A stretch of 22,551 bases of DNA, taken from the IMG/VR virus record IMGVR_UViG_2534681934_000013; one strand, written 5' to 3'. The translations under genes were made by a program, and so were the position numbers. This document shows positions 4,915-9,309 of the stretch, piece after piece. Position 1 is the first letter of the stretch, and each line of letters starts with the position of its first letter. The DNA is from a virus. Taxonomy: Duplodnaviria > Heunggongvirae > Uroviricota > Caudoviricetes. A model generated the notes under the pieces. That model saw nothing but the letters and a program-made list of their open reading frames with translations. It was not told the origin of the DNA and searched no databases.

Positions 4915-6755
4915 ATGGGCAAAGGTGGCGGCAAGGCGCACACGCCGGTAGAGGCAAAGGACAATCTTAAGTCCACGCAGATGATGAGCGTGATTGATGC
5001 CATTGGTGAAGGGCCGATTGAAGGTCCGGTGAAGGGGCTGCAGAGTATCCTGGTGAACAAAACCCCGCTGACGGACACGGACGGTAATCCTGTGATACAT
5101 GGTGTGACAGCGGTCTGGCGCGCCGGGGAGCAGGAGCAGACACCACCTGAAGGCTTTGAGTCCTCCGGGGCGGAAACCGCACTGGGCGTGGAAGTGACGA
5201 AGGCAAAGCCGGTGACGCGCACCATTACGTCCGCGAACATTGACCGCCTGCGGGTCACCTTCGGGGTGCAGTCACTGTTGGAGACCACCTCAAAGGGCGA
5301 CCGTAATCACTCTTCTGTCCGACTGCTGATTCAGTTGCAGCGTAACGGTAACTGGGTGACGGAAAAGGATGTCACCATTAACGGCAAGACCACCTCGCAG
5401 TTTCTGGCGTCGGTGATTCTGGATAATCTGCCTGAGCGGCCCTTTAACATCCGGATGGTCCGGGAGACAGCGGACAGCACCTCGGACCAGCTGCAGAATA
5501 AGACGCTCTGGTCGTCATACACCGAAATCATCGATGTGAAACAGTGCTACCCGAACACGGCGATTGTGGGGCTGCAGGTGGATGCGGAGCAGTTTGGCGG
5601 TCAGCAGATGACGGTGAACTACCATATCCGCGGTCGCATCATCCAGGTACCGTCAAACTATGACCCGGAAAAACGCACGTACAGCGGCATCTGGGACGGC
5701 AGCCTGAAACCGGCATACAGCAACAACCCTGCCTGGTGCCTGTGGGACATGCTGACCCACCCGCGCTACGGAATGGGAAAACGCCTGGGGGCGGCGGATG
5801 TGGACAAGTGGGCGCTGTATGCCATTGCGCAGTACTGCGACCAGACGGTCCGGATGGTTCCGGGGGCACAGAGCCGCGGATGACTTTCAATGCGTACCTG
5901 TCACAACAGCGTAAGGCGTGGGACGTTCTCAGTGATTTCTGCTCGGCGATGCGCTGTATGCCGGTATGGAACGGGCAGACGCTGACGTTTGTGCAGGACC
6001 GTCCGTCAGATGTGGTGTGGCCCTACACCAGCAGTGATGTGGTGGTGGATGATAACGGCGTGGGGTTTCGCTACAGCTTCAGCGCCCTGAAGGACCGCCA
6101 CACGGCGGTGGAGGTGAATTACACCGACCCGCAGAACGGCTGGCAGACCTCCACGGAACTGGTGGAAGACCCGGAAGCCATACTGCGCTACGGACGCAAC
6201 CTGCTGAAGATGGATGCGTTCGGCTGCACCAGTCGCGGTCAGGCCCACCGTGCCGGGCTGTGGGTGATAAAGACCGGACTGCTGGAAACGCAGACGGTGG
6301 ATTTCACGCTCGGGTCACAGGGGCTGCGTCACACACCCGGTGACATTATTGAAATCTGTGATAACGACTATGCCGGGACCATGACCGGCGGACGTATCCT
6401 GTCCATCGATGCCGCCAGCCGCACCCTGACACTGGACCGTGAGGTGACCCTGCCGGAGACCGGTGCCGCCACGGTGAACCTGATTAACGGCAGCGGTAAG
6501 CCGGTGAGCGTGGCCATCACTGCACACCCCGCGCCGGACCGGATACAGGTCAGCACCCTGCCTGATGGCGTGGAGACATACGGTGTGTGGGGGCTCTCCC
6601 TGCCGTCACTGCGCCGTCGCCTGTTCCGCTGTGTCTCCGTCCGGGAAAACACGGACGGCACCTTTGCCATCACGGCGGTGCAGCACGTACCGGAAAAAGA
6701 AGCCATCGTGGATAACGGTGCTTTAAGGTCAATGTTTTTTATCAAAACATTTTAA
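4915..6755 (+). pseudogene. J: tail tip/host-specificity protein J (lambda gpJ-like): N-terminal ~600 aa only, with one frameshift
   Basis: MGKGGGKAHTPVEAKDNLKSTQMMSVIDAIGEGPIEGP closely resembles the lambda J N-terminus. Frame changes at about 5850 (QYCDQTV then PDGSGGTEPRMTFNAYL in the next frame). Similarity continues to ...AITAVQHVPEKEAIVDNGA at about 6722, then is lost; lambda J is about 1130 aa. Confidence 0.8.
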
Positions 6756-6815: not shown

Positions 6816-7454
6816 TTAAATATCTTGTTGAATTTTAAAGCATACTCCCAATATGCAAGATAGATCATCCAGCATAATTGAAGGGTAGCGAGGATTCGTG
6901 GGGACTAAAAGAATATCCGGCCCTTCTATCTCCAGTTTGCGAATGACAGGCGTTGTGGTCCCTTTGGGTAAGGCAAGGACAATATTTCCTGGTTGTACGA
7001 TTCGATCGGGATCAACAAAAACTGTTGAACCATTTGGGATGGAAACTCCACCACCAGATGTCGACATACTGTCACTCTCTAGAACAACAGCAAAGGTATT
7101 GGCCGGGATTTCTCCGACAAGCTGCACACAAGAGGTTATTGAGGAATTTTTCATATAATCACTCCAGCTTGCTGCCTGCTGAAGTGATAGTAGCGGAACC
7201 GTTTTTATCGGCGGTAAAGATAGATCAAGCGAATCACCTGTATTTAACTCTCCTCCATTAAGAAGCCAATTTTCGTTTACTTTCAATATCTTTGCCAGTG
7301 AACTTATGTAACGCGAGGACGGCGCTCCTCCACCGTTCATCCATTGACTTACGGAGCCTTTTGATGCGCCAGTGGCATTGACAAGGTCTTTGCCTTTCAA
7401 GTTTAGCGCATGCATACGTTGGGTTATGCGTTCAGATATTGTTTGCTTGTTCAT
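6816..7454 (-). CDS. cI: CI-like phage repressor (N-terminal HTH, C-terminal S24/LexA-like autopeptidase)
   Basis: 212 aa with an N-terminal HTH (LNLKGKDLVNATGASKGSVSQWMNG) and a C-terminal region with the Ser...Lys arrangement typical of S24 peptidases (ESDSMS...VIRKL). Divergent from a Cro-like gene; no SD before the ATG, compatible with a leaderless message as in lambda cI. Confidence 0.75.
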   Translation of the reverse strand: MNKQTISERITQRMHALNLKGKDLVNATGASKGSVSQWMNGGGAPSSRYISSLAKILKVNENWLLNGGELNTGDSLDLSLPPIKTVPLLSLQQAASWSDYMKNSSITSCVQLVGEIPANTFAVVLESDSMSTSGGGVSIPNGSTVFVDPDRIVQPGNIVLALPKGTTTPVIRKLEIEGPDILLVPTNPRYPSIMLDDLSCILGVCFKIQQDI

Positions 7455-7545
7455 GTTTTGATTTTAAAACACAGATGGTTTTGTTTCTTGACTTTCTTTG
7501 GTTTTGATTATTAAACTTTTGGCGTTCAGTTTTATGGAGCGACTC
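7455..7545. promoter_or_regulatory. divergent repressor/cro promoter-operator region (putative)
   Basis: AT-rich 90-bp spacer between divergent cI-like and cro-like genes; contains TTGACT and the inverted repeat aaaac-N7-gtttt. Individual operators not resolved. Confidence 0.4.
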
Positions 7546-7788
7546 ATGAAAAAATCAGAAGTATTAGGCTATTTTGGCGGAGTTGTTAAAACAGCCGCCG
7601 CTCTAGGAACGTCAAAAACCACAGTCAGCATGTGGGGGGAAGACGTTCCGTGGAAATGGGCGTTGCTAATTCAGGCAGTCACTGCCGGGGCGCTCAAATA
7701 TGAGTTACACATACCGACGGTTGTCATTCCCGATTCTGATCATAATCCGCCTTCTAACCAAGGGGGGATTCATGAAAATCAAGCATGA
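7546..7788 (+). CDS. cro: Cro-like HTH regulator
   Basis: 80 aa starting MKKSEVLGYFGGVVKTAAALGTSKTTVSMWGED (HTH); GGAG 5 nt upstream of ATG 7546; divergent from the repressor. Confidence 0.55.
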   Translation: MKKSEVLGYFGGVVKTAAALGTSKTTVSMWGEDVPWKWALLIQAVTAGALKYELHIPTVVIPDSDHNPPSNQGGIHENQA

Positions 7789-8197
7789 ACACATCCGCAT
7801 GGCGATGAATGCCTGGGCGCGTCCTGATGGCGAAAAAGTTCCGGCAGCTGGAATAACCCAGGCTTATTTTGAGTTGGGTATGACGTTTCCTGAACTGTAC
7901 GACGACAGCCATCCGGAAGCCCTGGCTCGCAATACCCAGAAAATTTTCCGCTGGATAGAGAAAGACACCCCTGATGCAGTTGAAAAAATGCAGGCTCTGT
8001 TACCGGCGATCGAAAAGGCAATGCCGCCTCTGCTGGTGGCCCGTATGCGCAGTCACAGCTCTGAATATTACCGTGAGATCGTCGAACGGAGGGATCGGCT
8101 GGTGAAAGATGTGGATGATTTTGTCGCAGCGGCGATCGCCTGGGGCACCCTGACTAACAGTGGGGGTCAGCCTGGTAATGCTGTTGTCGTGCATTGA
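7772..8197 (+). CDS. CII-like / YdaT-like regulatory protein (tentative)
   Basis: 141 aa starting MKIKHEHI with SD aaggggggatt; sits where CII sits in lambda. Family assignment is from memory of Rac ydaT and is uncertain. Confidence 0.45.
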   Translation: MKIKHEHIRMAMNAWARPDGEKVPAAGITQAYFELGMTFPELYDDSHPEALARNTQKIFRWIEKDTPDAVEKMQALLPAIEKAMPPLLVARMRSHSSEYYREIVERRDRLVKDVDDFVAAAIAWGTLTNSGGQPGNAVVVH

Positions 8198-8265
8198 CCA
8201 ACAATATTCATGCCGGATTTCTTCCGGATGTTCGAGGGTAAAGTTCGGTATCAGAAGAGGTGAGT

Positions 8266-9309
8266 ATGGCTAATGCCTGGCTCAGATTGTGGCATGACAT
8301 GCCAAATGACCCCAAGTGGCGAACGATTGCCAGGGTATCAGGACAGCCAATCGCAACAGTGATGGCAGTGTATATCCATCTTCTGGTGAGCGCGTCACGA
8401 AATGTCACGACATGTCACGGCGTGTCACTACGTGGTCACATTGATGTCACGACGGAAGATTTAGCAAGTGCGCTTGATGTGACGGAAGACGTAATTGATT
8501 CAATTTTGCATGCAATGCAGGGGCGGGTTCTGGATGGTGACCTTATTTCCGGATGGGAAAAACGTCAGGTGCTGAAAGAGGACAATGGTAACGTTTCGCA
8601 AACGGCAAAATCCCCGGCAGAGCGCAAGAGAGCGCAGCGGGAGCGGGAAAAGCTGCGGAAACATAATGCTGATTGTCACGATGAGTCACGACGTGTCACG
8701 CATCTGTCACGACAAGTCACGACAGATAAAGATACAGATAAAGATACAGATACAGAATTAAACCCCACACATAACGCGCGCGAGAGTATTCCGACCAGTG
8801 AGTCGAATGGTGCGCCGTTGCAGACAGCCGAACCTGAATACCTGGACGGCCTGAGCGAACCGATCGGGAAATTTTCGATGACTACTGTCTGGCAGCCGTC
8901 GCCGGATTTTCGACAACGGGCAGCAGTGTGGGGTATGGCTCTGCCTGAGCCGGAATTTACACCTGCTGAGCTTGCCGCATTCCGGGATTACTGGATGGCG
9001 GAGGGGAAGGTTTTCACGCAGGTTCAGTGGGAGCAGAAATTTGCCCGCCACGTGCAGCACGTCAGGGCACAGGTAAAACCAGTCAGCAAGGGGGGAAGCC
9101 ATGCAGCATCAGGTGGCACGGCATCACGGGCAGTTCAGGAAATCCGGGCTGCACGCGAACAGTGGGAACGTGACAACGGATTTATCAGCAACGGAAACGG
9201 CCTGGAAGCTGTGGGAGCTCATGGGGGAGGTGTATTCGAACCGCTGGACTCAGAAGAACGGGGCCGCACCTTCGAAGCTCTGGATTGCCCAGATTGGTGC
9301 GATGACTGA
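8266..9309 (+). CDS. replication initiator (functional analogue of lambda O; DnaT-like C-terminal region suspected) with internal iterons
   Basis: MANAWLRLWHDMPNDPKWRTIAR N-terminus; two clusters of GTCACG repeats lie inside the gene, as the lambda origin lies inside O; immediately upstream of a P-like gene. Confidence 0.6.
   Translation: MANAWLRLWHDMPNDPKWRTIARVSGQPIATVMAVYIHLLVSASRNVTTCHGVSLRGHIDVTTEDLASALDVTEDVIDSILHAMQGRVLDGDLISGWEKRQVLKEDNGNVSQTAKSPAERKRAQREREKLRKHNADCHDESRRVTHLSRQVTTDKDTDKDTDTELNPTHNARESIPTSESNGAPLQTAEPEYLDGLSEPIGKFSMTTVWQPSPDFRQRAAVWGMALPEPEFTPAELAAFRDYWMAEGKVFTQVQWEQKFARHVQHVRAQVKPVSKGGSHAASGGTASRAVQEIRAAREQWERDNGFISNGNGLEAVGAHGGGVFEPLDSEERGRTFEALDCPDWCDD
8394..8451. 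repeat. iteron cluster 1: six GTCAC(G/T/A) repeats at 10-11-bp spacing
   Basis: GTCACG at 8394, 8404, 8414; GTCACT 8424; GTCACA 8435; GTCACG 8446. Confidence 0.55.
8675..8756. repeat. iteron cluster 2 (five GTCACG repeats) plus adjacent tandem gataaagataca repeat
   Basis: GTCACG at 8675, 8685, 8695, 8706, 8716, then gataaagataca repeated about 2.5 times (encodes DKDTDKDTDTE). Confidence 0.55.

Follow-up and report, generated by a model that had tools for sequence, protein, structure and literature searches.

Repeat arrays within a prophage replication initiator gene

The stretch of DNA analysed here, referred to as the window, is 22,551 nucleotides long. Over its whole length it is about 99.5% identical to O157:H7 prophage DNA, and it contains a lambdoid early region. 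Positions 8200–9800, which hold a replication initiator gene, a P-like gene and their flanks, are 100% identical to E. coli O157:H7 chromosomes. The features of the early region and of the replication genes are given below, with the source of each assignment in brackets.

6816–7454, − strand: cI-like repressor, S24/LexA-type (Pfam, PHROG)
7488–7517, + strand: pR-like promoter (consensus match only)
7546–7788, + strand: Cro (Pfam, PHROG)
7772–8197, + strand: CII/YdaT-like gene (Pfam, PHROG)
8266–9309, + strand: replication initiator gene, 347 aa (ORF; RefSeq WP_001262402.1; PHROG; AlphaFold2 model)
8266–8565, + strand: folded N-terminal winged-helix domain of the initiator, aa 1–100, the presumed iteron-binding domain (AlphaFold2 model)
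8394–8451, + strand: iteron cluster 1, six GTCAC(G/T/A) cores at 10/10/10/11/11-bp steps (direct reading, pattern search, Tandem Repeats Finder)
8479–8483, − strand: single inverted core (GTGAC on the + strand), 28 nt downstream of cluster 1 (pattern search)
8614–8670, + strand: basic helix, aa 117–135, AERKRAQREREKLRKHNAD, directly 5' of cluster 2 (AlphaFold2 helix; class alignment)
8675–8721, + strand: iteron cluster 2, five GTCACG cores at 10/10/11/10-bp steps, abutting the AT tract in the region that codes for the disordered linker
8722–8763, + strand: A-rich tandem repeat of hexamer units, a candidate DNA-unwinding element at the joint of exchangeable N- and C-modules (Tandem Repeats Finder, stability)
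8851–9075, + strand: DnaT-like C-terminal ssDNA-binding domain, aa 196–270 (match to DnaT residues about 84–153, in sequence and fold)
9302–9763, + strand: lambda-P-like helicase loader gene, overlapping the initiator stop codon (Pfam, PHROG, RefSeq)

The initiator is laid out as an N-terminal winged-helix module, a disordered linker and a DnaT-like C-terminal domain. RefSeq names WP_001262402.1 a 'DnaT-like ssDNA-binding domain-containing protein', and the PHROG match of the initiator is phrog_1408, 'replication initiation protein' (E 3e-119). The loader gene matches Pfam PF06992 Phage_lambda_P (E 1.3e-15) and phrog_109, 'P-like helicase loader', has the RefSeq name 'replication protein P', and is itself followed by a DUF1627 gene. 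Upstream, the immunity and early region (6816–8197) would drive transcription into the candidate origin discussed below.

A first-pass annotation of this DNA had described six plus five GTCAC-type repeats at 10–11-bp spacing, and their positions were confirmed by direct reading and by pattern search. On the + strand, GTCAC starts at 8394, 8404, 8414, 8424, 8435 and 8446 in cluster 1, where the sixth bases are, in order, G, G, G, T, A and G. In cluster 2 it starts at 8675, 8685, 8695, 8706 and 8716, and all five copies read GTCACG. Tandem Repeats Finder reported period-10 arrays at 8394–8439 and 8675–8723. The distance from the last core of cluster 1 to the first core of cluster 2 is 229 bp, and it is equal in versions with four and with six cores. 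According to the ORF list and the RefSeq annotation, both clusters and the AT repeat lie inside the ORF at 8266–9309 (+), i.e., the initiator gene, and the cores occupy all three reading frames. Runs of GTCAC at 10/11-nt steps reached at most two copies in 2000 dinucleotide-preserving shuffles of the window, and runs of any 5-mer at such steps at most three copies in 300 shuffles, versus the six and five copies observed. Neither pattern search nor Tandem Repeats Finder found repeat arrays elsewhere in the 22.5-kb window. A CRISPR array, which has repeats of ~24–48 bp and unique spacers of like length and is non-coding, is ruled out by the 6-bp core units, the 4–5-bp spacers and the location in an intact ORF, as the first annotation had also held.

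The A-rich tandem repeat that had been reported after the second cluster was likewise recovered: Tandem Repeats Finder gives a 12-nt unit, ACAGATAAAGAT, in 2.9 copies with 95% matches at 8722–8756. The tract at 8722–8763 has a GC content of 0.30 with a strong A bias. Among all 40-bp stretches of the 22.5-kb window, its portion at 8724–8763 ranks second from the bottom in stability (dG −42.3; mean −56.4, sd 4.3), and the tract is the lowest-stability stretch within the replication genes. A (GATAAA/GATACA)n tract is found 3' of cluster 2 in nearly all homologues. Close E. coli relatives have between 3 and 10 of these hexamer units, and this variation accounts for protein length variants of 341–355 aa. 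The tract is short, at about 40 bp. A promoter and terminator scan of 7400–9900 gave counts at chance level, and no match fell in the AT tract. No DnaA boxes were found in 8394–8763, the nearest one-mismatch site being at 8110, and a DnaA-dependent origin is not indicated.

Conservation of the repeats and matched core types

In a one-genome-per-species scan, 38 loci were found to encode the N-terminal module at 45–92% amino-acid identity. GTCAC arrays are present at the same two gene positions in about 25 of these 38 loci, which represent 15 or more genera within the Gamma- and Betaproteobacteria, among them Escherichia, Shigella, Serratia, Rahnella, Erwinia, Pseudomonas, Bordetella, Acidovorax, Chromobacterium, Aquitalea, Gilvimarinus and Castellaniella. 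The first-pass annotation had reasoned that absence or decay of the repeats in close homologues would speak against its reading; they are instead kept in both close and distant ones. In relatives, cluster 1 has four or six cores, and cluster 2 has three to six, directly 5' of the AT tract. The spacers between the cores vary freely among homologues, no conserved dyad is present, and the 10–11-bp phase is held in every lineage, including those with a different core.

Synonymous sites were compared in 19 loci with less than 93% mutual nucleotide identity. Fourfold-degenerate third positions in the cluster 1 cores had an entropy of 0–0.6 bit, versus a mean of 1.52 bit at 18 other fourfold sites (Mann–Whitney p = 0.0025). 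Two of these 18 sites also had zero entropy, and both are the sixth base G of GTCACG. The single inverted core is found at the equivalent position in most GTCAC-type loci, and the third position of its GTN codon is G in all of the loci that encode valine there (17 of the 19). As the core fourfold sites are fixed while other fourfold sites and the spacers vary, purifying selection, as read from these alignments, is acting on the repeat DNA and not on the protein.

Could the arrays be a neutral product of slippage, or of gene conversion, at a junction of modules that is prone to recombination, i.e., a coding microsatellite without a binding role? Copy number does vary in close relatives, within the ranges given above for cluster 1, cluster 2 and the AT hexamers, and the AT tract coincides with the breakpoint of the exchangeable N- and C-modules. 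However, slippage would copy core and spacer together, whereas the spacers vary freely here. The core fourfold sites are invariant in the 19 loci even though other synonymous sites are near saturation, and no lineage has lost the phase, not even those in which the core itself is different. We therefore regard a neutral origin of the arrays as very unlikely.

Elsewhere in the family, these two gene positions are occupied by GTAACG or CGAACGC instead. We compared the two clusters in 56 loci that remained after dereplication at 90% nucleotide identity, with viral contigs added. The viral contigs were queried with distant members of the family; a query with the family alignment gave only E. coli loci that were 97–100% identical. 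The cluster 1 and cluster 2 regions were delimited by fixed gene intervals, and a core was considered dominant when present in three or more copies. The cores of clusters 1 and 2 were GTCAC/GTCAC in 27 of the 56 loci, GAACG/GAACG in 13 and GTAAC/GTAAC in five, and no locus had discordant cores. A dominant core was found in one region only in four loci and in neither region in seven. Thus, wherever both regions hold a dominant core, these cores agree (45/45). Such matched cores suggest that one lineage-specific factor reads both clusters. As for the seven relatives without clear arrays, either the arrays are not obligatory for the family or the copies have decayed. Cores of the GTAAC type never occur in the frame that reads TAA, and their spacing alternates between 10 and 11 nt so that TAA is avoided.

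Structure and modularity of the initiator

The initiator was modelled with AlphaFold2 from a 103-sequence alignment (mean pLDDT 70). Residues 3–100 form a confident domain with helices at 3–14, 16–25, 29–45, 63–70 and 74–84, a beta-hairpin at 47–56, and then a wing; the fold is a confident winged helix that resembles the DnaD N-terminal domain and CAP. The predicted recognition helix (aa 74–84, EDVIDSILHAM) is acidic, an uncommon property for a helix that reads DNA. Residues 136–150 have a pLDDT of about 52–68 (about 52 over aa 141–150), and residues 151–200 are disordered in the model, with a pLDDT below 50. Cluster 2 and the AT tract encode aa 137–164 and thus fall in the linker between the folded N-terminal domain and the DnaT-like domain, whereas cluster 1 encodes aa 43–62, which take in the last part of helix 3 and the folded domain's beta-hairpin. 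The basic helix at aa 117–135 is of a sequence type that varies with the iteron class in the alignment. Among Pfam and NCBIfam models, none matched the first 164 residues above the cut-off, the one Pfam hit being at chance level (E 0.048). Pfam Phage_rep_org_N (PF09681; SPP1 G38P-like) did not match the N-terminal module even at E ≤ 10, and the likeness of this module to the replisome-organizer family is one of fold and of weak PHROG similarity only. Clustered at 50% identity, the N-module family has 1904 cluster representatives with E ≤ 1e-3, from Proteobacteria and their phages.

A repeated peptide motif (VT / SR / CH dipeptides) that the protein needs would make the regularity of the DNA secondary. 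Pairs of V-T, S-R and (C/G)-H are indeed abundant in the encoded peptide, and parts such as RGH.DVT are conserved. Yet these dipeptides are what GTCACG yields when it is read in frames 0, 2 and 1, and the period of the arrays is not a multiple of three. At codon third positions the iteron base is invariably used even though the amino acids allow four codons, lineages with another core encode quite different peptides at this place (e.g., NATERGRTQ), and cluster 2 lies in the linker that the model leaves largely disordered. An explanation at the level of the peptide is extremely improbable.

In a class-sorted alignment, no other segment of this otherwise highly conserved domain is as class-specific as the hairpin. 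GTCACG phages have a hairpin of the type RNVTRGH.DVT, CGAACGC phages have NATERGRTQ, and GTAACG phages have V-T-rich versions. Outside the hairpin, this alignment allows no safe assignment of specificity-determining residues because the core classes follow clades. Cluster 1 might even be self-referential, its iterons encoding the hairpin (aa 46–57) that reads them, an idea that we consider doubtful. If the hairpin contacts DNA and sets specificity, a single mutation would alter the site and its reader together. If the self-referential reading were true, it would explain at least three joint switches of specificity in the clusters and the protein with the origin retained.

The initiator gene is also modular. 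BLAST homology breaks at 8757/8759 of the window (query positions 558/560), which is the end of the AT-rich repeat. The phages Evi, Tritos and 606R7 have the N-module at 84–86% nucleotide identity, an unrelated C-terminus and no P gene, and they retain four plus five GTCAC cores. Their cluster 1 is shorter by exactly 21 nt, i.e., two iteron periods or seven codons. A four-core cluster 1 is equal in length to the repeat-free 'S..EERG.....ED' segment of other relatives, and the array has thus overwritten an existing structural element instead of being inserted. Conversely, the DnaT-like C-module and the P gene are also found joined to a DUF1376 N-module (Rac-type ydaU) or to an HTH_36 N-module (PPompW/Eru7-type). 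These versions contain no GTCAC array and have other repeats before the same AT-rich joint (TGTTCAA in three copies plus an inverted copy; ACCCAAA in six copies at 22/20/10-nt steps). In most of the distant loci, CII-like, Cro-like, DnaT-like and P-like neighbours are not detectable. Judged from gene content across these loci, the sole constant gene partner of the repeats is the N-terminal winged-helix module of the initiator. Because the repeats are physically part of the coding DNA of that module, the argument rests on parsimony, and since this is true of both clusters, co-inheritance alone cannot name the binding protein.

This modularity also bears on other phased cis-acting sites, such as a centromere-like partition site, a packaging site or the target of a host or defence factor. 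Centromere-like sites share the build of short phased direct repeats. However, no partition genes are annotated in the neighbourhood and the element is an integrating lambdoid prophage. In a related O157:H7 prophage the initiator gene and the terminase genes are about 17 kb apart, the latter being downstream. Gene context thus offers nothing in favour of a partition or packaging role. Moreover, the arrays travel with the initiator module across unrelated phage backgrounds. A cis-acting site of one of these kinds is highly improbable.

A candidate replication origin and its known counterparts

Based on computational evidence, namely the phased repeats, the adjoining AT tract, the location in the initiator gene and the neighbouring loader gene, we consider it probable that this region is a prophage replication origin and that the N-terminal winged-helix module binds its GTCACG cores. 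The candidate prophage origin that the first-pass annotation had placed in the initiator gene thus gains support from homologue conservation, synonymous-site selection, matched core changes, AT instability and the P-like gene. In the mechanism that we propose, the region would be a theta-replication origin built into the initiator's own gene. Derepression would lead to transcription from the pR-like promoter and to production of the initiator and the P-like loader. The N-terminal winged-helix module would then bind the GTCACG cores and, with one core per helical turn, monomers would be aligned on one face of the DNA in each cluster. Protein bound at clusters 1 and 2 may interact and wrap or loop the intervening DNA, as in the lambda O-some, and the resulting strain would melt the adjoining A-rich (GATAAA/GATACA)n tract at 8722–8763. 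Finally, the DnaT-like ssDNA-binding domain and the P-like protein would bring the host DnaB helicase to the opened DNA. In this scheme we infer the binding of the cores by the N-module, the unwinding of the tract, the cooperation of the clusters and the start of replication at this site. The shortness of the AT tract, the acidic recognition helix and the seven relatives without clear arrays count against this reading. The window is colinear with none of the complete genomes in the collection, and its tail genes abut the repressor gene. The prophage copy in the window may be defective or rearranged, and for that reason the origin may not fire in this strain.

Plasmid iteron initiators commonly autoregulate. 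The repeats could thus be operator or roadblock sites, at which a protein, possibly the initiator, throttles transcription or translation of its own gene or of the P gene, with replication starting elsewhere. Cluster 1, at 128 nt into the coding sequence, is distant from the AT tract and lacks an unwinding element of its own, and selection on the DNA together with concerted core changes would suit any specific protein-binding site equally well. Against this, cluster 2 adjoins the lowest-stability DNA in the replication genes and, in nearly all homologues, a similar AT tract, which is the signature of an origin. In addition, the 22.5-kb window holds no further repeat array, and the position agrees with those of the lambda ori (PMC7466680) and SPP1 oriL (PMC6316719). 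Operator sites in place of an origin are therefore unlikely, and autoregulation is in any case compatible with origin function, so that the two may coexist.

With the region read as an origin, a candidate origin and a candidate origin-binding domain become available for a replication module that is present in many genomes: the initiator–P region is matched over at least 80% in 657 of 5426 complete E. coli genomes, including O157:H7. According to a recent survey of the replication regions of Stx phages, nothing is known of the replication proteins that belong to the non-lambda ('Eru') types (PMC8951638). Origins and iterons are not discussed in the Eru papers, and our literature search found no description of this origin or of the DNA sites of the N-module. 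The family represents a natural experiment in joint change of initiator and site specificity, with three core types that are matched between the clusters, and it provides an example of a DNA-binding array written over protein-coding sequence, even over that of a folded domain. The origin fragment might find use as a replicon specific to the phage, as a decoy that acts against such prophages by titration or, as the unit number of the AT tract varies, as a typing marker.

The arrangement had been likened to the lambda ori in the first-pass annotation. This likeness stands as an analogy, given the location of cluster 2 and the AT tract in the linker-coding region and the presence of a P-like gene, but it does not extend to kinship of the N-module with lambda O. 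In lambda and Stx phages, the ori lies in the central part of gene O, in the region that codes for the linker (PMC7466680). Here, such a placement holds for cluster 2 and the AT tract, but not for cluster 1, which the model places in the coding sequence of the folded domain. As in lambda, the origin would lie in the initiator gene, with direct initiator-binding repeats beside an AT-rich tract in the linker-coding region. The linker would join an N-terminal origin-binding domain to a C-terminal partner-recruiting domain, a P-type loader gene comes next, and the gene order is cI-cro-cII-initiator-P. Iteron number also varies between relatives in both systems, with four in lambda and six in Stx phages (PMC7466680). 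However, lambda has a single block of iterons, each an imperfect inverted repeat of 19 bp (PMC7466680), whereas the cores described here are 6 bp long, occur once per helical turn and form two blocks 229 bp apart, one of which overlies the coding sequence of the folded domain. The C-terminal domain is DnaT-like and unlike the lambda O C-terminus. The N-terminal module has no Pfam match to the lambda O relatives (HTH_36 / Phage_rep_O) and, as 19-bp inverted-repeat iterons are also lacking, membership of the lambda O family is ruled out.

A second counterpart is SPP1, in which oriL lies inside gene 38 and consists of direct repeats together with an AT-rich unwinding element bound by gp38 (PMC6316719). 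The SPP1 system comprises the replisome organizer gp38/G38P, the loader gp39 and the helicase gp40. Unlike SPP1, the present family has a host range in the Proteobacteria and a lambda-P-type loader that would use host DnaB instead of a phage helicase. A second copy of the origin, like SPP1 oriR, was not seen in the window.

The DopC/DopE proteins of Cellvibrionales and Oceanospirillales are a domesticated lambda O/P-like pair (PMC5509034). As in that pair, a P-like protein comes after an initiator-like protein whose C-terminus bears a DnaT motif. The N-terminus of DopC is of the HTH_36 type, and DopC is reported to have lost its iteron-like repeats and to have no origin function (PMC5509034). 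The initiator described here differs from DopC in its N-module and in its two strong repeat arrays, as would be expected of a still-viral, origin-bearing ancestor type. An Eru7/PPompW-type relative (L009) has exactly the HTH_36 + DnaT_C layout, and DopC/DopE appears to be a domesticated pair related to the HTH_36 + DnaT_C + P version.

Short repeats in two sets are also found in SaPI origins, where the AT-rich region is between the sets; unlike in these SaPI/PICI origins, the AT-rich region here follows the second set. Iteron plasmids (pPS10/RepA, R6K/pi) offer a further parallel, as they combine phased direct repeats and a winged-helix initiator with an AT-rich unwinding element alongside. 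Plasmid iterons are about 17–22 bp long and intergenic, whereas all elements of the present array are protein-coding. The kind of element is classical and known, but the initiator family seems to be undescribed in this respect. Its variant features are the two clusters, the hexamer cores at single-turn spacing, the position of one cluster over the coding sequence of a folded domain, the three matched core types and the constraints that the reading frame places on the array.

Reading frame and copy number of the iterons

The iterons lie within a coding sequence. In seven homologous initiator loci in which the core takes the form GTAAC (L030, L033, L210, L172, L175, L042 and L043; gene nt 118-235 and 330-600), 30 GTAAC cores were found in frame 0 and 27 in frame 1, while frame 2, where GTAAC would read the stop codon TAA, contained none. 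At frame-2 positions, L030 and L033 carry GTCAC or an inverted GTTAC instead. The core steps in the L172/L175/L042 lineage alternate 10/11/10, so that the frames of successive cores alternate between 0 and 1. Judged from these sequences, the iteron array is visibly constrained by the open reading frame.

Copy numbers vary even between near-identical E. coli prophages (the window and the loci L001-L004 and L050-L129). The AT tract (8722-8756 in the window, with its equivalents) contains 3-10 hexamer units, cluster 1 contains either 4 or 6 cores, and cluster 2 contains 3-6. The varying numbers of hexamer units and iterons result in initiators of 341-355 aa, and these copy numbers could serve as a typing marker for strain or prophage.

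Directly 3' of the AT tract are C runs (CCCC to CCCCCC), exemplified by AAACCCCACACATAACGCGCGCG in the window, where the stretch at 8757-8790 can also be read as a GC-rich minus-strand hairpin. Such runs also follow the AT tract in seven homologous loci (L013, L015, L016, L023, L024, L030 and L033), and the loci that carry them have very different C-terminal modules. The C runs might be a component of the origin, or they might merely be Pro codons.

Other sites in the window and the surrounding prophage

Several features of the window lie outside the candidate origin:

Up to 6755: tail genes, from the tape measure gene through the J gene, which is broken off at 6755 (339 aa)
10310/10321: two further GTCAC cores, 11 nt apart, inside the DUF1627 gene
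13015-13041: perfect 9-nt inverted repeat containing the iteron core, CGTGACAAT...ATTGTCACG, inside a ygiW/ydeI-like gene
16849-16924 and 17025-17101: two tRNA genes, downstream of the gene for an HTH-domain protein (16107-16820)

The inverted repeat lies ~4.3 kb downstream of the candidate origin; both it and the GTCAC pair may be due to chance. DnaA-box-like sites (TTATCCACA, with at most one mismatch) occur 13 times in the whole window, against 5.0 expected and a maximum of 12 in shuffled sequences. The minus strand carries 12 of these sites, and none of the 13 lies within the candidate origin.

In the first 7454 nt of the window, the tail genes directly adjoin a full-length cI-like repressor gene (6816-7454), whereas the repressor in the best complete-genome matches is a 112-aa remnant. 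These matches cover the window only in 3-4 pieces spread across about 35 kb. From this arrangement, the source of the window seems to be a rearranged or tandem prophage. One tRNA of the pair is tRNA-Arg (TCT); the other, with anticodon CAT, is assigned to Met by ARAGORN and to Ile by the RefSeq annotation. Two tRNA genes downstream of a gene for an HTH-domain protein are an arrangement known from Stx and lambdoid prophages.

Family members with nuclease-like segments and initiators with other N-terminal modules

Some family members contain nuclease-like segments (loci L045, L047 and L318, at about aa 105-140 of the initiator, and proteins P0152, P0193, P0219 and P0222). In some, a GIY-YIG-like segment (YVYYV...GISRNPWAR) replaces the linker and the cluster-2 region, and these members are without iteron arrays; HNH domains (PF01844/PF14279) are fused to other N-terminal modules. 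This suggests nuclease insertions or fusions into initiator genes.

Initiators that share the DnaT-like C-terminal module with the window and have different N-terminal modules carry repeats of their own. These repeats directly precede the AT-rich joint that the genes have in common: six copies of ACCCAAA in the HTH_36 (PPompW/Eru7) type (L009, gene nt 292-483), and three copies of TGTTCAA plus one inverted copy in the DUF1376 (Rac ydaU) type (L008/L010, gene nt 309-400). They may be the origins of the respective replication modules, possibly including oriJ of Rac.
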